This document shows, piece after piece, positions 11,202 to 45,005 of a stretch of DNA of 64,000 nt. The notes under the pieces are model-generated. The model was not told where the DNA came from, made no database searches, and was given only the letters and a program-made list of their open reading frames with translations. Both the position numbers and the translations under genes were made by a program. How positions within the stretch are numbered: position 1 is the stretch's first letter; every line of letters starts with the position of its first letter. Source of the DNA: Nitrosopumilus sp. (GTDB taxonomy: Archaea; Thermoproteota; Nitrososphaeria; Nitrososphaerales; Nitrosopumilaceae); the NCBI GenBank assembly GCA_024644105.1, contig JAHELP010000001.1:20672-84671 (forward strand). The letters run 5' to 3'.

Positions 11202-11678
11202 TGAAGCAAAAAATAGAATTGCTACAGATAAAACTACAGTAATTTCGCCAAGTATGATAATTTTTTTTCTTAATTTTTGAATTTCAGGTTCAGGCATTTG
11301 GTTTGACATTATTTTTTCTTCAACATCTTTTCGAATTACTCTAACATGAACAGCATATGTAATAATTAATGCAACGACAAGAATTATCTTAATAATTAGA
11401 AATGAACCATAACTAGTTGAGACTAGAAGATCAGGTTTAGCAATTAAAGCATGAGAAGTATACAAACCTGTTACCATTAGGATTATCAATGAGGGTACAG
11501 CAATTTTGTTAAATCGTTTTCCAACACGAATCATAATTTGCATTCGTTCTTCAACAGAATTGGTCATTGTTTTTAAAAGTGGAGAAAATACAATTCCAAT
11601 AAATAGAGAACCTCCAACCCAGATTGAAGCAGATATTAGATGAATCCAAGTGATAATTGCTTGCTCTATTGCAGCCAT
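11181..11678 (-). CDS. CopD-domain membrane protein
   Basis: 165 aa with 4 predicted TM helices. 'HLISASIWVGGSLFIGIVFSPLL' resembles the CopD family. Convergent 21-nt overlap with rtcA. Confidence 0.55.
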   Translation of the reverse strand: MAAIEQAIITWIHLISASIWVGGSLFIGIVFSPLLKTMTNSVEERMQIMIRVGKRFNKIAVPSLIILMVTGLYTSHALIAKPDLLVSTSYGSFLIIKIILVVALIITYAVHVRVIRKDVEEKIMSNQMPEPEIQKLRKKIIILGEITVVLSVAILFFASLLDAGV

Positions 11679-11744
11679 AGTTTATGATATTTTAAATCAA
11701 ATATTATGTATTTGGATCTTGACAACCTTTTTTAGTTAAACAAA

Positions 11745-12254
11745 TTGGAAATCAATGATTTGGCACTTCAAAGTAAAATGACAGTATATGCAGCAATAGC
11801 TGGAGTTTTTGCTTTAATGGGAGGAATTGTTTTCTATGCAAGTCTTGATAATATTGAACTAGATCAAATAGAAATTGAATTAACAAATGTAGAATTAAGA
11901 GATGTAAACACTGTAAACAATCAAGCAAAGCTTGAGGTTACATTTTTGGTAAAAAATCCCAGTGATAAAACATTAACAGTTTCACTGATTGATTTCCAAT
12001 TGTTTGGAAATGGTGAATTATTAGGTTCAGGATTATATTCTACGGCCGATATTGCATTGCCTGGAAGAGCATTATTTTATTCAGGTGCAGAGATTCCGCT
12101 GAAAAATACATTTGTTTTAACAAAGTCTGAAGAAAATTCAGAATTATATGATGATATAATTAATGAAAGAATTTCTAGTTTTAGTGCTGAAGGAAAGATC
12201 ACTACTCAAACTTCATGGAGTGAAACTGACAAAGATTTCAAAACAGGTTATTAA
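11745..12254 (+). CDS. Membrane-anchored LEA_2/WHy-like protein
   Basis: 169 aa. N-terminal TM helix followed by a beta-rich domain ('KLEVTFLVKNPSDKTLTV...FQLFGNGELLG'). Paralogous by eye to 17759-18211. TTG start. Confidence 0.4.
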   Translation: MEINDLALQSKMTVYAAIAGVFALMGGIVFYASLDNIELDQIEIELTNVELRDVNTVNNQAKLEVTFLVKNPSDKTLTVSLIDFQLFGNGELLGSGLYSTADIALPGRALFYSGAEIPLKNTFVLTKSEENSELYDDIINERISSFSAEGKITTQTSWSETDKDFKTGY

Positions 12255-12262
12255 TTAAAAAG

Positions 12263-12336
12263 TGGGCCTAATGAGATTCGAACTCATGATCACCGCCATG
12301 TCGAGGCGGTATCCTAACCAGCTAGACTACAGGCCC
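12263..12336 (-). tRNA. tRNA-Val (anticodon GAC), no encoded CCA
   Basis: Hand-folded cloverleaf. Acceptor GGGCCTG/TAGGCCC, T-arm ATGAG-TTCGAAT-CTCAT, anticodon stem CCGCC/GGCGG with loop TCGACAT, discriminator A. Position 33 reads C rather than U. Confidence 0.8.
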
Positions 12337-12403
12337 ATTGAAAAATAAATCAAATAATTGACATTATTAACGTTTAACAAAAGAAAGAATCAGGGTTGAA
12401 TAG

Positions 12404-13114
12404 ATGACAGAAAATTTTACAGATGAAGAAAAAAGAGGCTTCTATAAGGCAATTTATTCAAGAAGAGATGTAAGATCTCATTTTACCTCAAAACCAATTG
12501 CTGATGAGATATTATCAAAAATTCTTAATGCTGCACATCATGCACCATCAGTTGGATTTTCTCAACCATGGAATTTTATTTTGATTAAAGATATTGAGAC
12601 AAAAAAGAAAATAAAACAATCTTTTGAGCAAGAAAAAAATCGTTCGTCACAATTAGTAGAAGAACCAAAAAAATCAAAATACCTTTCATTCAAGCTAGAA
12701 GGAATTTTGGAATCTCCAATTAATCTCTGTGTAACTTATGATCCTACAAAATTTGGTCCATTTGTTATTGGTAGATCAAGTATTCCAGAAGCAGGACTCT
12801 ATAGTGTTTGTTGTGCAATTCAAAATTTGTGGTTATCAGCTAGAACTGAAGGAGTTGGTCTTGGTTGGGTAAGTATTTTATCCAATGAGACATTAAAAGA
12901 AACTCTAGATTTACCTGAACATGTCATTCCTGTAGCATATTTGTGCTTAGGTTATGTGGATGAATTTGCAGAAAAACCAGATCTTGAAACTAAAGGTTGG
13001 TTACCAAGACTAGAATTGAAAGATGTAGTATTTTTTGAAAAATGGAATGACAAAGAAAATAAAAATTGGAAAAAAATTCAAAATATGATTAAAGAAAATC
13101 TTGATTACGCTTAA
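12404..13114 (+). CDS. bluB: 5,6-dimethylbenzimidazole synthase (BluB, nitroreductase fold)
   Basis: 236 aa. 'YKAIYSRRDVRSHF' and 'AHHAPSVGFSQPWNFILI' match my memory of the BluB signature region. Confidence 0.8.
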   Translation: MTENFTDEEKRGFYKAIYSRRDVRSHFTSKPIADEILSKILNAAHHAPSVGFSQPWNFILIKDIETKKKIKQSFEQEKNRSSQLVEEPKKSKYLSFKLEGILESPINLCVTYDPTKFGPFVIGRSSIPEAGLYSVCCAIQNLWLSARTEGVGLGWVSILSNETLKETLDLPEHVIPVAYLCLGYVDEFAEKPDLETKGWLPRLELKDVVFFEKWNDKENKNWKKIQNMIKENLDYA

Positions 13115-29377: not shown

Positions 29378-29872
29378 CTAATTTCTTACATGTTTTTCAT
29401 AAAATGATATAGCTATCTCTTGTACTTCAGATTGAATTGAACCTGGTCTTTCATCTCGAATTTTTTTAATTGCATTTTCTGCTGAAAATTTTTTATATTT
29501 TATAAAATAACATGCCAAGATTGTTCCAGCTCTCCCCATTCCAGCTGCACAGTGAACCATAACTGCTTGATCATTATTGATTTGTTCATGTATGAAATCT
29601 ACTGCTGAATCTATTCTGTCCATATCAGGAGCTGTCAAATCAGGAGTTGGGACATGTAGATAACCAATATTTTTTACCCAATCATCAGGTAGTGACTGTT
29701 CAGTCATTGTAACAATTGATTTTACTCCTTGGTTTAGAAGCCAATCAAATTCATGAGAACTAGTTGGAATACCAGAACCTGCCAATTTTTCTTCAATTAA
29801 CCAAGAAAAGTTTGTGGGTTTTTTTGTAATTTTTCCATGAACTTTTCTCCAAATATTTCCAGGCTTGCTCAT
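29378..29872 (-). CDS. Dual-specificity/tyrosine protein phosphatase
   Basis: 164 aa. Catalytic P-loop 'VHCAAGMGRAGT' (HCxxGxxR). Confidence 0.8.
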   Translation of the reverse strand: MSKPGNIWRKVHGKITKKPTNFSWLIEEKLAGSGIPTSSHEFDWLLNQGVKSIVTMTEQSLPDDWVKNIGYLHVPTPDLTAPDMDRIDSAVDFIHEQINNDQAVMVHCAAGMGRAGTILACYFIKYKKFSAENAIKKIRDERPGSIQSEVQEIAISFYEKHVRN

Positions 29873-29927
29873 ATAGAATTATGATTTGTTCAGTATTTTT
29901 AGTATTACGTAATCAAATGTGAGTAAA

Positions 29928-30569
29928 TTATGAAGCAATTGCTCTTACGGGAGAGCCTGTTACATCTTTTAGTTTTAATGGAAGAATTGTAAAATTGAAT
30001 TCTTTTGATTTAATTTTATTCAAATTTGTTAGATTTTCCACAATCAAAATATTATTTTTTGAAAAAATATGATGAACACTATATGATTGATCTCGTCCAA
30101 GATCAATACTCGGGGAATCTATTCCAACTAGATTAGTTTTTTTTGATGTAAGATATTTTGCTGATGATAAATCTAATCCAGGATTTTCAGTAAAATAATT
30201 TTTATTTTTTAGATTTTTTTGCCATTCTGTATAGAAAAAGACTGAAGAGTGATTTTTGATTTTTCCATTCTTTTTTTCAAATAACGTGATATCTGATTTT
30301 GTAATGGGTGTATTCTTGGATTTTTTGAGTTTTATGAGAACTGCTTTGCCAACTAGTCTATCTAGTGGAATTTGATGAATTTTTAGACCATTTTTGACAA
30401 AATGATATGGAGCATCAATGTGTGTACCTGTATGTGAACTAAGAAATAATAGTTCAAGATTATATCCATCTTTTTTGATGTCTGACCAACCAATGAATTG
30501 TGGAGTTGGAGATCCGGGAAAACTTGGAATGGATTCTGATATCGTAAGTGACAAATCTATTGGTTTCAC
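29928..30569 (-). CDS. Cyclase-family protein (kynurenine formamidase-like)
   Basis: 213 aa. Contains the motif 'SSHTGTHIDAPYHF' (HxGTHxDxPxH). Confidence 0.75.
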   Translation of the reverse strand: MKPIDLSLTISESIPSFPGSPTPQFIGWSDIKKDGYNLELLFLSSHTGTHIDAPYHFVKNGLKIHQIPLDRLVGKAVLIKLKKSKNTPITKSDITLFEKKNGKIKNHSSVFFYTEWQKNLKNKNYFTENPGLDLSSAKYLTSKKTNLVGIDSPSIDLGRDQSYSVHHIFSKNNILIVENLTNLNKIKSKEFNFTILPLKLKDVTGSPVRAIAS

Positions 30570-32659: not shown

Positions 32660-32690
32660 GAAAAATTAATTTACTTTACACTGCGATCAA

Positions 32691-32730
32691 AATATCAAAC
32701 GGCGTTATAAAATATCAAACGGCGTTATAA
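32691..32730. promoter_or_regulatory. Perfect 20-bp tandem direct repeat AATATCAAACGGCGTTATAA x2, upstream of the ferredoxin gene
   Basis: Copies at 32691-32710 and 32711-32730. A TATA-like AAATTATATTAAGA at 32747-32760 lies about 30 nt before the ATG at 32784. Confidence 0.85.
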
Positions 32731-32783: not shown

Positions 32784-33083
32784 ATGCCAGTAGGAATTAT
32801 TCCAGACATCAGCGAACAAATGTGTATCGGATGCGCACTATGTGTAGAAATCTGTACCACACTTGGACCAGATGTCCTTAGAGTAAAACCAGTTGAAGGC
32901 TGGAAGAGAGGTAAAGCATTTGTCTTCTACCCAGAAAGATGTATTTCTGATGGTGCATGCATTGGTGTATGCCCAACAAAAGCAATCTTTTGGATGAGAC
33001 CAATGGACTTTACAGTTGGACAACCAGTTCCACTCTACAAGAACTCAGTCTTCGTCAAAGGTTGGACTGAATTAATCGATTAG
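32784..33083 (+). CDS. 2x[4Fe-4S] ferredoxin-domain protein
   Basis: 99 aa. Contains 'CIGCALCVEIC' and 'CISDGACIGVCP'. Confidence 0.85.
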   Translation: MPVGIIPDISEQMCIGCALCVEICTTLGPDVLRVKPVEGWKRGKAFVFYPERCISDGACIGVCPTKAIFWMRPMDFTVGQPVPLYKNSVFVKGWTELID

Positions 33084-33118
33084 ATTAGTTCATCAATTTT
33101 TAATTTCTTTTTATTATT

Positions 33119-34111
33119 TTAGACTTTAAGAGGACCTGATGTTTCATCTTGAATTTTTGGTTTTTTCTTTAACCAAAACATTGCAATTAGAAACATTACA
33201 CCAGGAATGAGAATTATCAACAACATTAACTCGTAATAAGTTGATAGTCTTTGAGCAGGTTTTGTATGATAAGTTTCGTGAGATGTTTTTTCAGGATTAT
33301 CATAAACAGCTGTAGTAAAATCAACAGAGCGTTGTTCTTTATTTTGGAAATTTCCAGATACAGTAACACTTTCCTCAGCAAAAACTGAAGGGGAATGAAT
33401 TCCTTCAATTCTTACAATAATTGAACCTGAATCACTAAAAACAAAATTTCTATAATCACCACCAATCTGACTTAGGCCTTCATCCCTAAGAATTTCTTTT
33501 CCATTTTGAAATATTACAAAATTGTATTTCATGCTTGCAAGATTAGAATTTGTTTGTGGATCATAAAATTGGTAAACAAATTGTATTTTTTCATGTGTTT
33601 TAATTACTTGTGGATCCCATGTTAAATTAACTTCAATACTTCTATCTGGTGTATATTGTAATAATGGAAACTCTAATTTTTTACCAGTTGCATCATGTGG
33701 AAAATCAGGAATTTCTTTTTCAACAATTAGTATACCTTCCATCCAAGGATGAATTGTACAATAGTAAGAAAATGTACCAGATTCTTCAAATTTATATGAC
33801 CATGATTCGCCTGGCATGAATCTACCACTATCAAAAATTCCGTTTGACTGTCCAAAGTTATCGCTCATCCAACCAAATCTTCCTGAACCCTCTCCACTTG
33901 TAACTGTGTGACCCTCTTTGTCATCATTATACCAAGTAACTGTATCACCTACTGTTACAAACATCTGAGGAGGATCATACCAAACTTCTGCAACTGTGTT
34001 TAATTCTGGGTTGTATGCTCCTATTGGAATATCAATGATATATTCTTCGGCATAGACTAAAGAGGTAGAGCCTAAAATAAGAAAAATTGATGATAATAAC
34101 AAAAATTTCAT
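33119..34111 (-). CDS. Membrane-anchored blue-copper (plastocyanin-like cupredoxin) protein
   Basis: 330 aa. Signal peptide, then 'VGDTVTWYNDDKEGHTVTS' and 'YYCTIHPWMEG' (type-1 Cu ligands H..C..H..M). A second beta-rich domain follows, then a C-terminal TM helix. Confidence 0.8.
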   Translation of the reverse strand: MKFLLLSSIFLILGSTSLVYAEEYIIDIPIGAYNPELNTVAEVWYDPPQMFVTVGDTVTWYNDDKEGHTVTSGEGSGRFGWMSDNFGQSNGIFDSGRFMPGESWSYKFEESGTFSYYCTIHPWMEGILIVEKEIPDFPHDATGKKLEFPLLQYTPDRSIEVNLTWDPQVIKTHEKIQFVYQFYDPQTNSNLASMKYNFVIFQNGKEILRDEGLSQIGGDYRNFVFSDSGSIIVRIEGIHSPSVFAEESVTVSGNFQNKEQRSVDFTTAVYDNPEKTSHETYHTKPAQRLSTYYELMLLIILIPGVMFLIAMFWLKKKPKIQDETSGPLKV

Positions 34112-34217: not shown

Positions 34218-35999
34218 TTGATATTTGTACAAAGTAAACAAAGAACAAAAATGACAATTTCAATTAATCTTGGTAAAAAGCTAATTTTCTTAGTATTGAT
34301 AGTATCTATTGTAACAATAACAATAACTGGTTTTCTTAGTTTCAACCATGCTGATCAAATTCTCGATAAAAGAACGGGTGAACAATTATTGGGTGAATCA
34401 AATGCAAGAGGAGAAACTTTAAGATTAATTTTTGAATCACGAATTGAGCAAAATAATATTCTTGCAAGTGATCCTATGATTAAATTATTAGTAACAGAAA
34501 TGAATCAGATTCCTGAAAATCAATTAAAAGAAATTAAAGATGAAAATAGAAGGGATTTTTTAATTCAAGTTCAGGCATTTCAAAAATTAATTGGTTTTTC
34601 TATCGGTTTTGAGGATACAAAAATTATAGGTAATAATGGAAAAGTGTTTTTTTCGTTGACTGGTATTTTAAATGAAAATTTTTCTGAAGATGAACTTTTT
34701 CAAAGAGGATTAAAAGAATCGTTTATAGAATTTGAGTCGGCAGAATCCGGTAAAAAAATGATTGTAGTATCACCAATTTTTGCTGATGATAGTAAAAAAG
34801 GAGATAAGCCAATTGGAGTAATTATTTCAAAGATGAGGACAGCATCAATTGATAATATTCTAATCGGTAAAAGTGGATTAGGAGAAACTGGTGAGGTGTA
34901 TATTGTAAATAATGAATCATTAATGTTATCTCAATCCAGATTTTTAGAGGATGTAATATTCAAGCAACAAGTGAATACTCTGGCTGTTCAGAAATGTTTG
35001 GATGAAGGAGAAGATTATTTAGGATTTTATCAAGATTATAGAAATGTTACAATTTATGGATCATCGTATTGTGCAGATGATTTAGGTATAGTACTACTTG
35101 TAGAGATGGATAAAGCAGAAGTAGAAAAACCAGTAGAAATACTTCAGGAAAGAATTTTTGAAACAGGTATTATTATTACTGTAGGAATGGTAATTGCTGC
35201 CTTTCTAATATCAAAATCTCTTTCAAGACCGCTAATCAAATTAAAAAGTGCAGCAAACAAAATTGCAAGCGGGGATTTTGGAGTAAGAACCAATATTACA
35301 ACTGGTGATGAAATCGGGGAATTATCACAAGCATTTGATTCAATGGCACAAAAATTACAAGAATCATTAATTGAGATTAAAGAAAAAGAAGAAGTAATTA
35401 AACAACAAGAAGAAATATTGTTAAAATTTTCTCAACATACTCAAAACGATTGTGTAGGTGTAATTGACATGAAAGATTCTACAAGAATTTCAAGTGAATT
35501 ATCCGATGAGAAGGTTACCAAAATGTATGAAATATTTTTGAATTTTATGGCAAAAATTGTTCGTAACCATAATGGAGAAGTTGTAAAAAATATTGGAGAT
35601 GCTTTGATGTTTAGATTTGGAAATGTTGATCCAAAAAATATTGAAGAAATGAAAAATATTTTGGAATGCTGCCTATCAATGATTGATTCTCATGATGAAT
35701 TAAAAAAACAACTTAATGCAGAAGGTATGCCTGAAATAGATTTCAAGATTAGTGCAACGTATGGATCTGTAAAAGTAGCTGAAAGTACTACTTCAAATAT
35801 TTCAGATATCTTTGGACCTACAGTCAATAAATGTTTCAAGATAAATTCACTTTGTCCAAAAAATAGTGTGGTTGTTGGCATTAATCTATATGAAATTTTG
35901 AAAGATTTAGATGAATACGAATTTACAGAATTTTCTTCTGCTGAATTGAAAGAAAAATATGGTTATAGTATTTTTGAAGTTAAAAGAAGAAAGAATTAG
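34218..35999 (+). CDS. Cache-like sensor / HAMP / class III nucleotidyl-cyclase-like signalling protein
   Basis: 593 aa. TM helix, ~290-aa extracytoplasmic domain, second TM helix, then HAMP ('SRPLIKLKSAANKIASGDFGVRTNITTGDEIGELSQAFDSMAQKL') and a coiled coil. The cyclase-homology region has 'VGVIDMKDSTRIS', 'VKNIGDALMFRFG' and 'GPTVNKCFKI'. The likely true start is ATG 34251. Confidence 0.7.
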   Translation: MIFVQSKQRTKMTISINLGKKLIFLVLIVSIVTITITGFLSFNHADQILDKRTGEQLLGESNARGETLRLIFESRIEQNNILASDPMIKLLVTEMNQIPENQLKEIKDENRRDFLIQVQAFQKLIGFSIGFEDTKIIGNNGKVFFSLTGILNENFSEDELFQRGLKESFIEFESAESGKKMIVVSPIFADDSKKGDKPIGVIISKMRTASIDNILIGKSGLGETGEVYIVNNESLMLSQSRFLEDVIFKQQVNTLAVQKCLDEGEDYLGFYQDYRNVTIYGSSYCADDLGIVLLVEMDKAEVEKPVEILQERIFETGIIITVGMVIAAFLISKSLSRPLIKLKSAANKIASGDFGVRTNITTGDEIGELSQAFDSMAQKLQESLIEIKEKEEVIKQQEEILLKFSQHTQNDCVGVIDMKDSTRISSELSDEKVTKMYEIFLNFMAKIVRNHNGEVVKNIGDALMFRFGNVDPKNIEEMKNILECCLSMIDSHDELKKQLNAEGMPEIDFKISATYGSVKVAESTTSNISDIFGPTVNKCFKINSLCPKNSVVVGINLYEILKDLDEYEFTEFSSAELKEKYGYSIFEVKRRKN

Positions 36000-36056
36000 A
36001 AAAATATTCTATAGTTTCGTATAGATATTTCAGGTATTTTGAGGCTAATTTTATTA

Positions 36057-36431
36057 TTATTGATTACTTTTTTGAGCATCAAGTTTTGCATGGATAAAAT
36101 CAATAATTTTCAAATAATCTGCTCTTGGTTCTGTACTAATTAGAAATAGTTCATTTGTATTAATTGGAATACTAATCATTGAAACTAATTCATATTCTGT
36201 TATTGATGATTTTTCAGAACCAATTTTGTATGCTAAATTTGTGTAAAGATCTCTTTTTTGTAAAGCATAATGAATTGACATGTTTATCTCATCACCAACT
36301 AACATTTTCTCAACATTTTCTTTATGTCCTCCTGCAATCAACTCTCCTTTACTATTTGCAATACCTGCAAATCTCACTTGGGAATCTAAATCAAGTACTT
36401 GTTTTGTTAATTCTTCATAATTGATTGTCAT
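36057..36431 (-). CDS. Roadblock/LC7-like small protein, translationally coupled to amt
   Basis: 124 aa. 'LDSQVRFAGIANSKGELIAGGH' resembles the Roadblock/MglB pattern. Its ATG overlaps the amt stop (ATGA at 36428-36431). Confidence 0.5.
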   Translation of the reverse strand: MTINYEELTKQVLDLDSQVRFAGIANSKGELIAGGHKENVEKMLVGDEINMSIHYALQKRDLYTNLAYKIGSEKSSITEYELVSMISIPINTNELFLISTEPRADYLKIIDFIHAKLDAQKSNQ

Positions 36432-37756
36432 TTTTCATCCTTATCAGATTTCTTTTTGAAAAGTATTTCATCTTTTTCTTCTAATCTATCAGTGTAATCA
36501 TCCATATCCAACAAGAATTCTTCTTCATCTGAGTAAGCAGATTCAGCATGTTCGCTAATGTCCAAACCTATATCTTCCACTTCAGCAGAAACTCGAATTC
36601 CGATTGTGTGTTTTAGAATTTGTAATATGATCCATGTTCCTCCAAAGCCCATCGCTGCTGCAATACCAACACCTACTGCTTGAATCCATAGTTGATCAGG
36701 ATTTCCAAATAACAAACCATCTACCCCTCCAGGATTTATTGCAGTACTTGCAAAGATTCCTATAGCTAATGCACCAACAATTCCTGCAACACCGTGGACA
36801 GAGCTAACATCAAGTGCATCATCAATCTTTAGTTTTTCTTTGAATAACACTACTCCAGAGTATGAAATAACACCAATTGCAATTCCGATAATGAAAGCAT
36901 GTTCAGCACTAACAAATCCTGATGCAGGAGTAATTCCAGCAAGACCTGCAATTGCTCCGTTAATTGTGGCTACAACAGAAGGTTTGCCAGTTCTAATCCA
37001 TGAAAGACCTGCCCAAATTAAAGCAGAAACAGATGATGCCATATGAGTTACAATTACTGTGTTACCAGCTACACCACCTGAAGCAGATAATGCACTTCCT
37101 GCGTTAAAACCAAACCAACCAAGCCATAGCAAAGAAGATCCAAGAACTGCAAGTGGAATACTATGAGGAATCATAATAGCAGGACCATAGTTACGTCGTT
37201 TTCCAAGAACTAGTGCGGCAGCAAGTGCTGCCATTCCAACACTGGTGTGAATTACGATACCACCAGCAAAGTCAACAACACCAAGATCTGATAACCAACC
37301 TCCTCCCCAAACCCAGTGAACAAGTGGATAATAGATTAGCATTGACCATGCTGCAATGAATATGATAAATGAACTGAACTTCATTCTTTCAGCAATTGTT
37401 CCAGTAAGTAAAAGTGGAGTAATTGCTGCAAACATTAATTGAAACTTAACAAACAAGACACCAGGAATTGTTGGGGCATACTGCTCTAATGGAGCATCTG
37501 ATGGAACTCCTTTAAGAAATACCCAATCAAAATTTCCAACTAATCCTGCGGTTGTTTCACCAAAGGAAATACTAAATCCAAATACAAACCACATGACACT
37601 CAAAAGTGCCAATCCAAAAAAGATTTGCATAAAAATTGATGCTGCATTCTTCTTTCTCAAAAGTCCAGATTCAAAAAGACCTAATGCAGGGATCATCAGC
37701 AATACAAGACTACCTGCTACAAGCATCCATGCTGTATCCCCAGAATCTAGAACCAT
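36428..37756 (-). CDS. amt: Ammonium transporter (Amt family) with an acidic C-terminal tail
   Basis: 442 aa with about 11 TM helices. Contains 'VDFAGGIVIHTSVGMAALA', 'WFGFNAGSA' and 'DDALDVSSVHGVAGIVGA'. The C-terminal ~60 aa is rich in D/E. Confidence 0.95.
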   Translation of the reverse strand: MVLDSGDTAWMLVAGSLVLLMIPALGLFESGLLRKKNAASIFMQIFFGLALLSVMWFVFGFSISFGETTAGLVGNFDWVFLKGVPSDAPLEQYAPTIPGVLFVKFQLMFAAITPLLLTGTIAERMKFSSFIIFIAAWSMLIYYPLVHWVWGGGWLSDLGVVDFAGGIVIHTSVGMAALAAALVLGKRRNYGPAIMIPHSIPLAVLGSSLLWLGWFGFNAGSALSASGGVAGNTVIVTHMASSVSALIWAGLSWIRTGKPSVVATINGAIAGLAGITPASGFVSAEHAFIIGIAIGVISYSGVVLFKEKLKIDDALDVSSVHGVAGIVGALAIGIFASTAINPGGVDGLLFGNPDQLWIQAVGVGIAAAMGFGGTWIILQILKHTIGIRVSAEVEDIGLDISEHAESAYSDEEEFLLDMDDYTDRLEEKDEILFKKKSDKDEK

Positions 37757-37795
37757 GATAAAAAATTGAATTTTAAACTAATAACAATGACTAAA

Positions 37796-37828
37796 TTTGA
37801 TTATCATTTGATTATCATTTGATTATCA
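37796..37828. promoter_or_regulatory. Perfect 3 x 11-bp tandem repeat TTTGATTATCA in the amt/PII divergent intergenic region
   Basis: Units at 37796-37806, 37807-37817 and 37818-37828, followed by a partial AAATCA. A TATA-like AAATTATATTTG at about 37837-37848 lies ~29 nt before the PII ATG (37871). Confidence 0.9.
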
Positions 37829-37870
37829 AAATCAGAAATTATATTTGTGTAAATTACATACAATAACTAA

Positions 37871-38200
37871 ATGCTCAAAATTGAAGTCATACTTGGAAAC
37901 AATGATGTTATGGCTATTAGTGAAGGATTAAAAAAAATTGGTATTGGGGGACTTACTGTTTCTAAAGTAAGAGGAAGAGGGAAGAAACCAGGTCCGGAAA
38001 TTCACGCATCTAAAGGAAGTGAAATTTTTGTGCCTCAATTTAGTGAAAAATACAGATTGGAAGCCATAATTTCAGATACGCAAGAAGATGAAGCAATATC
38101 AATTATTAAAAAAAATGGGAGAGTAGGTAAAATCTTTGTTTCTCAAATTTTACGGGCAGTGGATATTGCTACTGATGACGAAGGAGAATCTACAATCTAA
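37871..38200 (+). CDS. PII-family signal protein with a divergent T-loop
   Basis: 109 aa. 'KIEVIL...GLTVSKVRGRGKK...RLEAIISDTQEDEAISII...GKIFVSQI' has the PII beta-alpha-beta topology. The T-loop reads 'GRGKKPGPEIHASKGSEIFVPQF', with no Tyr at the usual modification site. Confidence 0.75.
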   Translation: MLKIEVILGNNDVMAISEGLKKIGIGGLTVSKVRGRGKKPGPEIHASKGSEIFVPQFSEKYRLEAIISDTQEDEAISIIKKNGRVGKIFVSQILRAVDIATDDEGESTI

Positions 38201-38204
38201 AGAT

Positions 38205-38342
38205 ATGAACATGAAGTTTATTCGTAAAAGTAAATTGTTTCATAGAGAAGAGATGAAACCATTAAACTCAAAAGATTTTCTTAAGGTTCTTGTAATTGCA
38301 GGAATCATTGTTATACCACTTCTTGTTGGTTTAGCTGTATGA
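38205..38342 (+). CDS. Micro-ORF encoding a single-TM peptide (45 aa)
   Basis: MNMKFIRKSKLFHREEMKPLNSKDFLKVLVIAGIIVIPLLVGLAV*. This is the ATG-initiated 3' part of track ORF 38136-38342, starting 5 nt after the PII stop. Confidence 0.3.
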   Translation: MNMKFIRKSKLFHREEMKPLNSKDFLKVLVIAGIIVIPLLVGLAV

Positions 38343-38431
38343 AAATATCTAAAATTTGGTTAACTAAGCTGGCACTTGCAATTATTGGAATGACTCTAAT
38401 TGGTTTGTATTTATTCTTACCAACTTTATAA
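38339..38431 (+). CDS. Micro-ORF encoding a single-TM peptide (30 aa)
   Basis: Hand translation: MKISKIWLTKLALAIIGMTLIGLYLFLPTL*. Its ATG overlaps the previous stop (ATGA at 38339-38342). Confidence 0.25.
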   Translation: MKISKIWLTKLALAIIGMTLIGLYLFLPTL

Positions 38432-38434
38432 TAA

Positions 38435-39016
38435 TTAATACTCACCAAAATTATTTTCATAAATAATTGTAGGATTCTTTAGTTGTTTTTCAATTGTTGG
38501 TAAGGATTTCATGATGCAATTATTTACAAAAGCACTGAAAGATTTGATTTGGTAATATTCTCGTAATGTTTCTTTATTGTTTTCATAAATAATTTGTAAT
38601 TTATTGAGAGTAAATTTTTGTAACGGAACAAATCTACTTCGTTTTGGTAATTGTCTTTTTTCTAAATTTTTATCAATTGAGATTTCAAGATCTTGCTCTC
38701 CGTCAAGTGTATCCATATCTACAACTTCCTCCATTTCAGAGACGAAAATTTTTCCTCCATGAATGGTTGATAGTCCAGAATTTTTAGAAATCATTTCAAC
38801 AAGTTTTCTAGCATCTTTATCAGAAACTACCATTTCGATTTTTGCCAATGGTACTGACTTTAAACCAGTAGAACCAACATGTGATCCTTGTGATTCATCA
38901 TAAATATGGCTATCATCTAAATTTCGTTTATCAATTATGTATGTCCCTATTTCATTCAAATTTGTTTTAATTATAGGAAAATTTTTTCGCTTAATTATAG
39001 CCTCTATTTTTTTCAC
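38435..39016 (-). CDS. PII-like domain fused to an uncharacterised ~90-aa C-terminal domain
   Basis: 193 aa. The N-terminal 'MKKIEAIIKR...KIEMVVSDKDARKLVEMISKN...GGKIFVSEMEEVV' is canonical PII framing, but the T-loop is replaced by 'DKRNLDDSHIYDESQGSHVGSTGLKSV'. I recognise no family for residues ~105-193. Confidence 0.65.
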   Translation of the reverse strand: MKKIEAIIKRKNFPIIKTNLNEIGTYIIDKRNLDDSHIYDESQGSHVGSTGLKSVPLAKIEMVVSDKDARKLVEMISKNSGLSTIHGGKIFVSEMEEVVDMDTLDGEQDLEISIDKNLEKRQLPKRSRFVPLQKFTLNKLQIIYENNKETLREYYQIKSFSAFVNNCIMKSLPTIEKQLKNPTIIYENNFGEY

Positions 39017-39090
39017 AAATAAAATTCAGAGAAAGACCCTATTTATCAGAAATGGTTATTTTCAAGGCTAGAATTGGCTTTCAAACCTAA

Positions 39091-40242
39091 TTATTTTTTA
39101 GAAAATCCAAATTTTGATGCCCAACCATGTTTTTGTTTTTTAGATGGTTTCATTGATAGATTATCCAGCATTTCATATGTTATAGTAAATCCATGGCCAA
39201 CCATGGTTGCATCTTTATTGTAATTTTCTTTGTTTGGTACAAATTCATCAGCTAAATCTTTGATTTTTTTAGTTTTTAGATCAAATAATCTAATTTTTTT
39301 ACCATTTTCAAGTTTTATTATTGCATCACCACTTAAACCCTGAATAGAAAAAGTTTCAAAGAATCGAATTGTTCCACCTTTCTTTAGTTCAATTACGGAA
39401 TCATAAGTTAATTTTCCACCATAAAATAAAATTTCTCTTGCAGATATTATTACATCATCTTCTACATTCAAAACAATAACTGAATCAGCTTCAAGTAAAA
39501 CAGTGTCTGCAAGATTTTCTGCAATAATTTTTCCATTTGGTGCTAAAATATGTGTTCGGTGTTCTTGAATTTGAAAAACTCCTACACGTACAGGATCTTC
39601 TACTCTAAATTTTCTACCATAAATATTCCCAACTACTACATTTCCATTATCAACAGTAATTTTTGCACCATTATCAATTTTATATTTATTTTCTAATGGA
39701 TTAATAAATTTGAAATCACCATTTGTTAAATGAATATCTGTTTGAAATTCTTTCGTCCAAGAAGGACTAGTTATACTACCTTGCATAATTATTGAACCAT
39801 CATAACAAAAACTTCCCGCCATGAAATTACCTTTAATAGATAATGCTCCATTAGCTTTTCTTTCTAATTCAATTTCCCCAAGAGTTTTTGAACCAAACAA
39901 TCTAGATGCAGTAGTGTTTGATATATTCAAAGCTGAAGCCCAGTCTTGAGCAATTTTCATTTCTTTAAATAATTCTTGACCTAAAATCTGATTTTTTCTT
40001 CTTACATCTGCCTCAGAATCACCTGAATATACTTTGGAATTTTTTAATTTTTCATAATCAGTCTCTGGATACTTTTTACCAATCTTTAGATCATCATAAG
40101 CTTGTTTAATTTTGATAAATTGTTCATTTTCACCTCCACGATCTGAGTGAAATTGTAGAGCTAATCGTCTAAATGCATCACGAATTTCTTTCTCTGTGGT
40201 ACCTTCAACAATTCCTAAAATATCATAATTACTTTCCACCAC
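39091..40242 (-). CDS. J-domain protein (HPD replaced by HSD) with a beta-strand-rich C-terminal domain
   Basis: 383 aa. J-domain 'YDILGIVEGTTEKEIRDAFRRLALQFHSDRGG...IKQAYDDL'. The C-terminal ~270 aa has repetitive short beta-like segments (ITVDNGNVVVGNIYG, LLEADSVIVLNVEDDVIISA). Confidence 0.7.
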   Translation of the reverse strand: MVESNYDILGIVEGTTEKEIRDAFRRLALQFHSDRGGENEQFIKIKQAYDDLKIGKKYPETDYEKLKNSKVYSGDSEADVRRKNQILGQELFKEMKIAQDWASALNISNTTASRLFGSKTLGEIELERKANGALSIKGNFMAGSFCYDGSIIMQGSITSPSWTKEFQTDIHLTNGDFKFINPLENKYKIDNGAKITVDNGNVVVGNIYGRKFRVEDPVRVGVFQIQEHRTHILAPNGKIIAENLADTVLLEADSVIVLNVEDDVIISAREILFYGGKLTYDSVIELKKGGTIRFFETFSIQGLSGDAIIKLENGKKIRLFDLKTKKIKDLADEFVPNKENYNKDATMVGHGFTITYEMLDNLSMKPSKKQKHGWASKFGFSKK

Positions 40243-43559: not shown

Positions 43560-45005
43560 TCAGGCATCAGCATACATTGAAACTTCCCATGCAGTAGGAG
43601 TTTGTGCAAATGCGGTATACTCTTTGTATTTTAGTTCAGAATAAGCATCAAGAAAATCTTTTGTGAAAACATCAACTAAGAAATTTGAATCACTTGATAA
43701 AGAATCGAGAGCACCTTTCAGAGATACAGGAAGAGAGCCAATTTTGTATTCACGTTTCTTTTCTGCAGAAAGTTTGTAAACATTTTCTTCTACCGGATCA
43801 CCAGGATCAATTTTATTTTTAATTCCATCTAGACCGGCAAGTAATAATGCAGATTCTAAAAGATAGATGTTTGCGGTTGGATCAGGAACACGATATTCAA
43901 TCCTCTTGCTTTTTTCTTGGTTTCTGTTGTACATTGGAACTCTAATTGCAGTAGAACGATTTGCTAATCCCCAGCATACATTAACAGGTGCTTCAAATCC
44001 AGGTACGAGACGTTTGTATGAATTTGTTGTTGGATTTGAGATTGCACATAATGCTGAAGCATGGCTTAAGATTCCACCAATATAATATCTACCAGTTTGG
44101 CTCATTTGAGCTAGATCATCATCTTTATCATACATGACATTTGAATTTTCTTTCCATAAACTTTGGTGTGTATGCATGGCAGAAGCATTATCACCAAAAA
44201 TTGGTTTTGGCATAAAAGTTGCAACTTTATTTTTTCTTTTAGCTTTAACTTTTACTAAATTTTTAACTGCAATAACATTGTCAGCCATAGCAATCATTTC
44301 ATCATAAACTAAATTGATTTCACATTGACCAGATGTTGCAACCTCATGATGTTCAGCTTCAATTTTTATTCCAAAATAATTATACAAATCATCACAAACA
44401 TCTTTTCGAAATCCTTCTAGTGTATCCTTGGGTTGTGATGGATAGTATCCTTCTTTGATATCTATTGCAGTACTAACATTTCCTTTTGCCCATGGGGATT
44501 CTTTAGATTCTATAGAATATCCAGAACCTCCTCCTGAGTGAGTTGCTGCATATGGGGATGGATAAACATTGATTGCATCAAATACAAAAAATTCAATTTC
44601 AGGTCCCCAATTAGTATGAGTAAAACCAAATTCTCCAAGCTTCTGTGCTGCTTTAAATGCAATTCCCCGAGAATCTCTATTGTATCGTGATTCTTTGTTT
44701 GTATTACCATCATAGAGATCACAAAAAATTCTTGCATTTTTTCTATTACCAGGATCATAATCATTTGGAAGAACTTTGAAAGAATTAGGATCAGGCATTA
44801 AAATCATATCAGAATTATTAACAGATTTGAATCCAACAATTGAACTTGCATCTAGTTTTTCAAGACCGTTAACAAAACTATTTTTATCAATTGCATAACT
44901 GGGCATTCCAACATTATGTAGCTCACCAAAAATATCTACAAACCAAAAATCTATGAACGATATATTTTCATCTTTAATAGCTTGTAATACTTGATCTGAG
45001 TTCAA
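43560..45005 (-). CDS. glnA: Glutamine synthetase, type I (copy 1)
   Basis: 481 aa. Contains 'GPEIEFFVF', 'HHEVATSGQCEIN', 'MPKPIFGDNASAMHTHQSLW', 'NSYKRLVPGFEAP' and 'NRSTAIRVP'. Confidence 0.9.
   Translation of the reverse strand: MNSDQVLQAIKDENISFIDFWFVDIFGELHNVGMPSYAIDKNSFVNGLEKLDASSIVGFKSVNNSDMILMPDPNSFKVLPNDYDPGNRKNARIFCDLYDGNTNKESRYNRDSRGIAFKAAQKLGEFGFTHTNWGPEIEFFVFDAINVYPSPYAATHSGGGSGYSIESKESPWAKGNVSTAIDIKEGYYPSQPKDTLEGFRKDVCDDLYNYFGIKIEAEHHEVATSGQCEINLVYDEMIAMADNVIAVKNLVKVKAKRKNKVATFMPKPIFGDNASAMHTHQSLWKENSNVMYDKDDDLAQMSQTGRYYIGGILSHASALCAISNPTTNSYKRLVPGFEAPVNVCWGLANRSTAIRVPMYNRNQEKSKRIEYRVPDPTANIYLLESALLLAGLDGIKNKIDPGDPVEENVYKLSAEKKREYKIGSLPVSLKGALDSLSSDSNFLVDVFTKDFLDAYSELKYKEYTAFAQTPTAWEVSMYADA

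Follow-up and report, generated by a model that had tools for sequence, protein, structure and literature searches.

The stretch of Nitrosopumilus sp. DNA analysed here (hereafter the window: 64 kb, G+C content ~31%) carries, between positions 34218 and 40242, a compact group of genes centred on an ammonium transporter gene, amt1. The original prediction, made from the letters of the sequence, listed seven elements at this locus – a membrane sensor, a Roadblock-like protein, the transporter, a short tandem repeat in a divergent promoter, a PII protein, a pair of microproteins and, on the opposite strand, a PII domain fused to a further domain and preceded by a J-domain protein – and proposed that they work together as an undescribed nitrogen-sensing module. 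All seven are present where they had been placed (Table 1). The Amt, PII and neighbouring proteins have their nearest relatives, 75–96% identical, in Nitrosopumilus genomes and in marine metagenomes. An Rfam scan of the window returned three tRNAs only, and no further paralogues of the DUF6659 protein, of PII or of the C-terminal domain of the PII fusion were found in it; scanning for promoters and terminators of bacterial type is not meaningful for an archaeal host.

Table 1. Features of the amt1 locus and its flanks, numbered from the first nucleotide of the window.
Feature	Position	Strand	Evidence or remark
Ferredoxin 2x[4Fe-4S], 99 aa	32784-33083	+	95-100% identical across loci
Membrane sensor, 582 aa from ATG	34251..35999	+	Transmembrane (TM) helix, dCache_1, TM helix, HAMP, class III cyclase-homology domain (CHD)
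DUF6659 protein, 124 aa	36057..36431	-	PF20364; ATGA overlap with amt stop
Ammonium transporter, Amt1-type, 442 aa	36428..37756	-	PF00909, TIGR00836
Amt1 acidic C-terminal extension, residues ~409-442	36431..36532	-	Conserved motif
amt1/PII divergent control region, 114 nt	37757..37870	.	Conservation, A/T boxes
TATA-like A/T-rich boxes	37770-37786 (amt side), 37836-37847 (PII side)	.	Putative assignment
Operator-like array, three TGAT(A/T)ATCA palindromes, 11-bp spacing	37795..37828	.	Tandem Repeats Finder (TRF)
Atypical GlnK-like PII, 109 aa	37871..38200	+	PF00543
Microprotein 1, ~42-45 aa, one TM helix	38205..38342	+	Basic N-terminus RKSKLFHREKMQP, then TM helix
Microprotein 2, 30 aa, one TM helix	38339..38431	+	ATG overlaps microprotein 1 stop (ATGA)
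PII fusion, 193 aa	38435..39016	-	PF00543 N-domain (1-~100), acidic disordered linker, helical C-terminal domain
Fusion C-terminal domain, residues ~125-193	38438-38644	-	Conserved, helical
J-domain protein, 383 aa, HSD for HPD	39091..40242	-	PF00226; module membership doubtful
Glutamine synthetase	43560-45005	-	3.3 kb further on

Genes and proteins of the locus

The transporter is a full-length member of its family, scoring 384.4 bits against PF00909 (cut-off 23.2) and 422 bits against TIGR00836 (cut-off 343), and its orthologues across the Nitrosopumilaceae are 77–96% identical. From the lack of a signal peptide and from the PII genes that flank it we infer that it is of the low-affinity Amt1 type, the type represented by Nmar_0588 (PMC7490402, PMC4836417). 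Ammonia starvation leads to down-regulation of Nmar_0588 (PMC7490402), and a regulated promoter is therefore to be expected. Some 34 residues extend past the end of the Pfam domain. This long acidic tail, already singled out in the original prediction, bears the motif SDEEEF.L.MD.YT..L..KDEILFKKK, which is kept in Nitrosopumilus and Nitrosarchaeum-like loci; the tail is shortened in Nitrosotenuis-like loci and missing from the Amt proteins of Nitrosotalea and the Nitrososphaeraceae. One Nitrosotenuis-like locus (L167; loci of the comparative sample are numbered with the prefix L) has a second, longer Amt of 523 aa, 42% identical, directly 3' of the Amt1-type gene (11466–13037, plus strand). 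This protein may be of the high-affinity Amt2 type, with both transporters in tandem.

Divergent from amt1 lies the gene of a 109-aa PII protein (54.9 bits against PF00543, cut-off 25). It matches 37 PII sequences of the PDB at E ≤ 1e-3, the best of them E. coli GlnK from its complex with AmtB (2NS1, E 3e-11), and the locus resembles AmtB–GlnK and the archaeal Amt/GlnK pairs in linking an Amt to a small PII protein. A further likeness is the long and highly conserved T-loop: GRGK[KR]PGPEIHASKGSEIFVPQF is nearly invariant across 70 unique PII sequences. Relative to E. coli GlnK, however, the T-loop is two residues longer, lacks Tyr51 and has Lys for Arg47, and the residues aligned with the modification site (Tyr51 or Ser49) are Ile/Phe. 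Archaeal PII proteins commonly lack Tyr51. The B-loop, NGRV-----GKIF, is five residues shorter than the T-G-x-x-G-D-G-K-I-F of canonical proteins, and Asp/Ala stand in place of Arg101/Arg103; both changes are kept in the 70 sequences. A non-canonical T-loop had been predicted, and this is borne out, but the oddest features of the protein are the B-loop deletion and the lost arginines. In its B-loop motif, at Arg101/Arg103, at Tyr51/Ser49 and at Arg47 the protein falls outside the canonical definition of GlnB/GlnK; in genetic linkage it agrees with GlnK, its gene adjoining amt in divergent orientation and without co-transcription.

The pairing of amtB with glnK is textbook knowledge. Here the two genes are divergent instead of co-transcribed, the gene coupled to amt is that of the Roadblock-like DUF6659 protein, and a second PII protein, two microproteins and an operator array are present in addition. 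These additions bear out the claim that the locus departs from the textbook unit; the claim went too far in one respect, as the atypical PII is still the most constant partner of amt (see below).

The second PII protein is the fusion. Its N-terminal domain scores 39.6 bits against PF00543 (cut-off 25) and matches GlnK1 of M. thermolithotrophicus in a phmmer search (E 8.6e-9). The AlphaFold2 model combines a confident PII fold with a disordered acidic linker and a helical C-terminal domain; compared by Foldseek it matches GlnK/PII structures at ~E 1e-6, and the PDB library returned PII proteins only. Within the C-terminal domain the monomer model has coil at residues 126–133 and helices at 134–146, 148–155, 160–170 and 172–180, with a predicted local distance difference test score (pLDDT) of 42–85 per 10-residue block, and the domain is preceded by an invariant basic segment, KRSR[FL]VPLQK. 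Homologues of the fusion number more than 1000 in the Nitrosopumilaceae; they are of constant length (189–195 aa), 50–86% identical, and named at NCBI either 'P-II family nitrogen regulator' or 'transcriptional regulator'.

As the original prediction had it, the domain joined to PII belongs to no recognised family. Pfam gave no match at E ≤ 10 when the domain was taken by itself from three orthologues, PDB sequences searched with profiles gave none either, and a fold search of a viral library with the whole model returned nothing interpretable. A phmmer search with the domain against 1.84 billion representatives yielded 14 clusters at 50% identity, 13 of which are members or fragments of the fusion family, the other being an unrelated repetitive protein. 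That protein aside, every full-length cluster inspected has a PII-like N-domain, and the search revealed no stand-alone or differently fused relatives. The domain was also suspected of being a ribbon-helix-helix (RHH) domain; all homology tests were negative, with hhalign giving a probability below 1% against CopG, against NikR and against a small alignment of RHH proteins.

As had been claimed, the gene to which amt1 is translationally coupled is not a PII gene; it encodes the DUF6659 protein. The junction takes the form of the ATGA overlap in ~20 loci and of a 10–18-nt gap in ~20 more. The protein scores 37.1 bits against PF20364 (cut-off 27), the sole family matched. Its AlphaFold2 model (pLDDT 70.7) has the element order alpha-beta-beta-alpha-beta-beta-alpha, and the top 50 Foldseek matches in the PDB are mostly Roadblock/LC7/LAMTOR/MP1-p14 structures, together with a few COPI/AP adaptor subunits, at modest scores (E 8e-4 to 2.5e-2, TM-score 0.36–0.54, root-mean-square deviation 8–12 A). 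The fold is accordingly predicted, from a model of moderate quality, to resemble the alpha-beta-alpha fold of the Roadblock/LC7/MglB/LAMTOR proteins. The protein differs from that family in having no Pfam match to Robl_LC7 (PF03259) and no small GTPase in its neighbourhood. The position of its gene beside a membrane sensor and a nutrient transporter recalls the conservons of Streptomyces, which combine a membrane sensor with a Roadblock protein.

Downstream of the PII gene follow the two microprotein genes. Uninterrupted reading frames are found in all of the distinct nucleotide variants from related loci (63 for microprotein 1 and 60 for microprotein 2), in which the other frames are mostly closed, and divergence at codon positions 1/2/3 is 0.24/0.13/0.42 for the former and 0.23/0.17/0.37 for the latter. 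By this pattern of substitution both micro-ORFs, predicted as ATGA-chained genes for single-TM peptides, are clearly under coding constraint. Microprotein 1 is kept in loci of the genus Nitrosopumilus and is an annotated gene in L081; microprotein 2 is missing from loci in which the PII gene and the PII fusion are immediate neighbours (L003, L005, L083, L167–L169). KdpF, AcrZ and MgtS are small membrane subunits of transporters, and the microproteins resemble them in being single-TM proteins of 30–45 aa encoded in a transporter-related operon. They differ in showing no homology to them and in following a PII gene, not the transporter gene. The PII–microprotein operon and the PII fusion gene converge at 38431–38435, with 3 nt between the stop codons; this leaves no room for separate terminators, and the 3' ends of the transcripts therefore probably overlap.

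The open reading frame of the membrane sensor opens at a TTG (34218–35999, plus strand), the ATG at 34251 being the likely start. Its Cache-like, HAMP and cyclase-homology parts, recognised from the outset, correspond to Pfam matches to dCache_1 (48.2 bits), HAMP (58.3 bits) and Guanylate_cyc (47.8 bits, cut-off 21.9; E 1.6e-12). The CHD aligns with CyaB of P. aeruginosa (3R5G, E 2.4e-8) and other adenylate cyclases. In common with class III adenylate cyclases that have HAMP/Cache inputs, it conserves both metal-binding Asp residues, the Lys/Asp pair of adenine specificity and the Asn. Inspected by eye, the R-x-W-Y and Y-x-D positions of the amino-acid-binding motif of dCache_1 sensors (Tyr, Arg, Trp, Tyr and Asp of the membrane-distal module) appear as ELFQRG and FES, which suggests that the ligand is probably not an amino acid.

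The amt1/PII control region

The intergenic region between amt1 and the PII gene is 115–117 nt long in most loci. Two A/T-rich boxes lie within it, ~20–35 nt from each start codon, and we take them to be putative TATA boxes. Between the two stand three TGATAATCA palindromes, 11 bp apart. A perfect 3 x 11-bp repeat had been reported here by the original prediction, and TRF recovers it from the window as an 11-bp x 3.1 tandem repeat with a score of 68. The perfect repeat is no one-off; it represents one allele of a conserved three-site array.

Most of 63 unique intergenic sequences carry the three-site array at a fixed position. A few loci outside Nitrosopumilus have a degenerate array or one of altered, TGTATAACA-type sites, the latter in Nitrosotenuis-like loci. 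In most lineages the three copies have diverged, at the same place and with the 11-bp spacing kept, and the conservation profile of 48 unique genus-level sequences peaks at both A/T boxes and at the central palindrome. Copy number also varies: there are six copies in L087 and L152 and 11 in L132, the steps always being whole 11-bp units. Strains are homogenised for different variants of the unit (TGATAATCAAA, TGATAATCATT, TGATTATCAAA and TGATAACCAAA). Arrays of three, six and 11 perfect copies with differing homogenised units suggest slippage and concerted evolution inside a regulatory array.

In ~1.04 Mb of sampled DNA of ammonia-oxidizing archaea (AOA) no phased double site occurs outside the amt/PII intergenic region; it is absent upstream of glutamine synthetase and of the sensor wherever these genes fall inside the sampled loci. 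Single TGATNATCA sites were considered as a signal and rejected, as seven were found in the window against 5.1 expected; the phased array alone is special. Judged by its placement and conservation, the array would seem to be an operator dedicated to the two divergent promoters.

Gene order in related archaea

Gene order was compared across ~90 archaeal loci, assembled from a genome scan with Amt as query, a scan of metagenomes that used the PII fusion, and look-ups of seven encoding contigs. The metagenome loci were selected via the PII fusion and are all of genus level, so they cannot prove linkage of the fusion; the genome and look-up sets can. The expectation that gene order would be conserved across AOA holds for a core, which is family-wide, and fails for the remainder, and the genes are best described in three tiers.

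The first tier extends over the Nitrosopumilaceae. In every locus of this family with an Amt at least 77% identical and with enough flank, the 109-aa PII gene and amt are divergent. A convergent arrangement of the fusion gene and the PII gene is seen in Nitrosopumilus (L001, L010, L081), in Nitrosarchaeum-like loci (L003, L083, L169) and in Nitrosotenuis-like loci (L005, L085, L167, L168), and the genes surrounding this pair differ among these loci. More distant Nitrososphaerota (L011, L068) have PII-family matches on the same strand directly after amt, which is the textbook amt–glnK order. The second tier is that of the genus Nitrosopumilus, where both microproteins are present and DUF6659 lies directly downstream of amt in nearly all loci. 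DUF6659 is also found near the module in other orders: upstream of the PII fusion in L003, after the sensor and a third PII gene in L147, and in L067.

The third tier, comprising the sensor and the J-domain gene, is variable. In the type of syntenic block found in the window the sensor gene lies downstream of DUF6659, in either orientation; in L004 it comes directly after amt; in L147 it overlaps amt and is followed by a third PII gene, and in L003 it adjoins that same third PII. In L085/L086 the space between the PII gene and the PII fusion is taken by a dCache-HAMP-PAS histidine kinase, a receiver and a stand-alone CHD protein. The dCache-HAMP part of the L085 kinase is 38% identical to the window sensor, and the CHD, here a separate protein downstream of kinase and receiver, shares the same motifs. 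There are, then, at least four arrangements of the sensor beside or inside the module. The recurrence of the association in rearranged form argues more strongly than anything else for counting the sensor as part of the PII/Amt module, and a functional link is likely.

The third PII-family protein (105–108 aa, PF00543 E 2e-17) has a full-length B-loop and a short T-loop. Its gene converges on the sensor gene in two different lineages (L147, 5552–5869, minus strand; L003, 1214–1540, minus strand) and is absent from the window. A 539-aa protein encoded upstream of the fusion gene in L167 and L168 was entertained as a sensor and set aside, as it looks like a secreted repeat protein.

Taken together, the PII fusion, the microproteins, DUF6659, the operator and the sensor stay with amt across many genomes and rearrangements, which upholds the proposal of a module in part; the seven parts are of unequal standing. 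The least secure is the J-domain protein. Its J-domain is genuine (39.8 bits against PF00226, cut-off 27.8; DNAJA1 at E 1.8e-8), and the mutated motif that had been predicted is a fixed feature: HSD replaces the Hsp70-stimulating HPD in the window and in 35 of 35 orthologues. The C-terminal 300 aa have no family match. The gene is confined to one syntenic block of close relatives, running from glutamine synthetase, correctly placed by the original prediction, through an aminotransferase. The J-domain protein is probably a bystander, a neighbour by descent only.

On the other side of the locus, the ferredoxin gene and that of a 330-aa membrane-anchored cupredoxin (together 32784–34111) border the sensor/amt block in every close relative. 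A perfect 2.1 x 20-bp tandem repeat (32689–32730) precedes the ferredoxin gene by about 55 nt. The same place in 13 other loci shows GCGATCA-N7-AAACG[C/G]CGTTATAA-N7-AAACGCCGTTATA, with a TATA-like AAATTATAT after it. The element, with its palindromic core AACGsCGTT, is a second conserved operator-like site and unrelated to the amt/PII array. AMT1, two ferredoxins and a membrane cupredoxin have been assigned to one co-expression module with amoABCX in a preprint on Ca. Nitrosopelagicus brevis (10.1101/175141), and the ferredoxin/cupredoxin neighbourhood may reflect shared regulation with the ammonia-oxidation machinery. Further out, ~4 kb from the sensor, a 164-aa dual-specificity/tyrosine phosphatase-like protein and a 213-aa 'putative cyclase' (PF04199) are encoded side by side (29378–30569, minus strand).

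A proposed Amt1 control locus

On balance, and with some reserve, we believe that this is an Amt1 control locus, a lineage-specific elaboration of the AmtB–GlnK principle, the functions of its parts being proposed from sequence, models and gene order. The 109-aa PII would act like GlnK, its invariant T-loop docking on Amt1 and gating uptake. A dedicated local regulator, bound to the three phased sites, would set transcription of amt1 and of the PII–microprotein operon according to nitrogen or energy status; this would fit published evidence that Amt1 is repressed in ammonia-starved cells. Among the local genes, that of the PII fusion is the best candidate for a link between metabolite status and such control, whether on the DNA or through a partner. 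The microproteins and the DUF6659 protein may be accessory subunits or adaptors of the Amt1 complex, for which the acidic tail of Amt1 is a possible docking site, and the dCache sensor would feed in an external signal, probably as a cyclic nucleotide. The J-domain protein would stand outside the mechanism.

A partial precedent is the SbtA–SbtB system of cyanobacteria, where a bicarbonate transporter has as its partner a PII-like protein able to bind cAMP and other adenine nucleotides. Here too a transporter is accompanied by a non-canonical PII-like protein with a C-terminal addition, and the nearby cyclase-type sensor suggests a cyclic-nucleotide input. There is no specific sequence relationship, though, and the addition is a domain of ~70 aa, not a short loop.

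Several observations weigh against the proposed control locus. The nucleotide pockets of both PII proteins are altered and, going by these residues, GlnK-like sensing of ATP, ADP and 2-oxoglutarate cannot be assumed for either. No DNA-binding family could be detected as a relative of the fusion's C-terminal domain. In the CHD, a putative cyclase, an invariant Lys (VN[KR]C.K[IL]N) occupies the position of the transition-state Arg in all aligned homologues; a further difference from class III adenylate cyclases is its altered G-x-H/N-T-G motif. Many loci have no sensor within 8–10 kb of amt (L081, L010, L067, L083, L006, L007, L136, L143, L163), and in L082 DUF6659 occupies the same context though the whole fusion–PII–amt block is missing. 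Finally, ~80 of the loci were retrieved with the PII fusion as query and all are genus-level relatives, because of which much of the seven-gene order could be inherited synteny.

The identity of the local regulator admits a different answer. It is possible, though not probable, that the operator is bound by a separate RHH regulator – a 195-aa protein, or a factor encoded elsewhere – and that the role of the PII fusion is confined to post-translational control, with Amt1 or glutamine synthetase as conceivable targets. Cooperative binding by RHH proteins typically involves short palindromes that recur every 11 bp. The 195-aa protein (L083, 10407–10994, plus strand) has a textbook RHH N-terminus, TRSITYRLPAKVVEELETEAMHKNISQNVLVKQILEKY, and a weak match to CopG_antitoxin (E 1e-3); its gene directly follows amt in L083, L084 and L169 and lies 1.5–4 kb from the module in L004, L007 and L168. 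The carriers are Nitrosarchaeum-like and Nitrosotenuis-like loci. Against a role for this protein, neither the 64-kb window nor any sampled Nitrosopumilus locus contains a homologue, although the same operator is there.

More radically, only amt1 and the divergent PII gene might cooperate, as an ordinary Amt/GlnK pair, the other genes being neighbours by recent common descent. That the full seven-gene order is limited to close relatives (Amt 91–96% identical) sharing the same glutamine synthetase-to-aminotransferase block speaks for this, and the J-domain gene, never seen in another context, the retention of DUF6659 without amt in L082, and the presence in L083 and L169 of amt and both PII genes without microproteins, DUF6659 or sensor all point the same way. 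We nevertheless regard it as unlikely: the PII fusion stays adjacent in three genus-level lineages despite their differing surroundings, the sensor is met with in four architectures, one of them split into separate domains inside the module, and translational coupling ties amt to DUF6659 and the microproteins to each other.

A stronger role for the PII fusion than the one proposed above can also be imagined. It could be a one-component nitrogen/energy-sensing transcription factor, in which a PII trimer is joined to a small DNA-binding domain of a new kind; the C-terminal domains would dimerise (three dimers to a pair of trimers), sit on the three phased TGATAATCA palindromes and control amt1 together with the PII–microprotein operon, and a cyclic nucleotide from the cyclase sensor could tune its state. 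We consider this doubtful, and DNA binding by the fusion a low-probability event that would nonetheless fit the layout of the locus. Circumstantial points in favour are that the fusion is the only uncharacterised gene always beside the phased operator, that some of its NCBI records carry the name 'transcriptional regulator', and that, from Nitrosopumilus-type to Nitrosotenuis-type loci, a change in the KRSR[FL]VPLQK segment goes along with one in the half-site sequence, though across only one evolutionary split. A ferredoxin-fold sensor and a small basic helical domain in one polypeptide recall one-component regulators of the NikR type, which join an RHH domain to a ferredoxin-fold sensor; the order of domains is reversed here, and no homology to RHH or other DNA-binding domains is detectable. 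Dedicated, short, phased palindromes at a nitrogen gene likewise recall PII-controlled transcription (NtcA/PipX/PII, NrpR, TnrA/GlnR), with DNA binding by the fusion putative.

That the 3 x 11-bp repeat is a neutral product of slippage (a variable-number tandem repeat) with no regulatory role is very improbable: perfect repeats do exist and strain copy number runs to 3, 6 and 11, but most lineages have, at one and the same position, three copies that have diverged, core palindromes and 11-bp spacing are conserved, the central site is among the most conserved intergenic columns, and the expansions keep helical phase.

The module is not undescribed in every part. The presence of PII genes near the low-affinity Amt of group 1.1a AOA has been noted (PMC4836417), and PII gene sets are known to vary widely among AOA (PMC7490402). 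The searchable literature yielded no account of the operator array, the PII fusion, the microproteins, or the association with DUF6659 or the sensor, and nothing on DUF6659, on Nmar_0584-0590, or on PII fusions in Thaumarchaeota; to these components the claim of novelty seems to apply.

For the study of archaeal nitrification and of PII signalling the locus offers several points of attack: a dedicated cis-element whose copy number varies naturally, a PII subfamily whose nucleotide pocket is altered, a family-restricted PII fusion, two conserved microproteins and a Roadblock-like protein tied to Amt1, and a membrane sensor with putative cyclase output that recurs next to PII genes. Should the proposed wiring hold even in part, this would be the first nitrogen-control circuit defined in ammonia-oxidizing archaea, and it would widen the range of PII signalling architectures.

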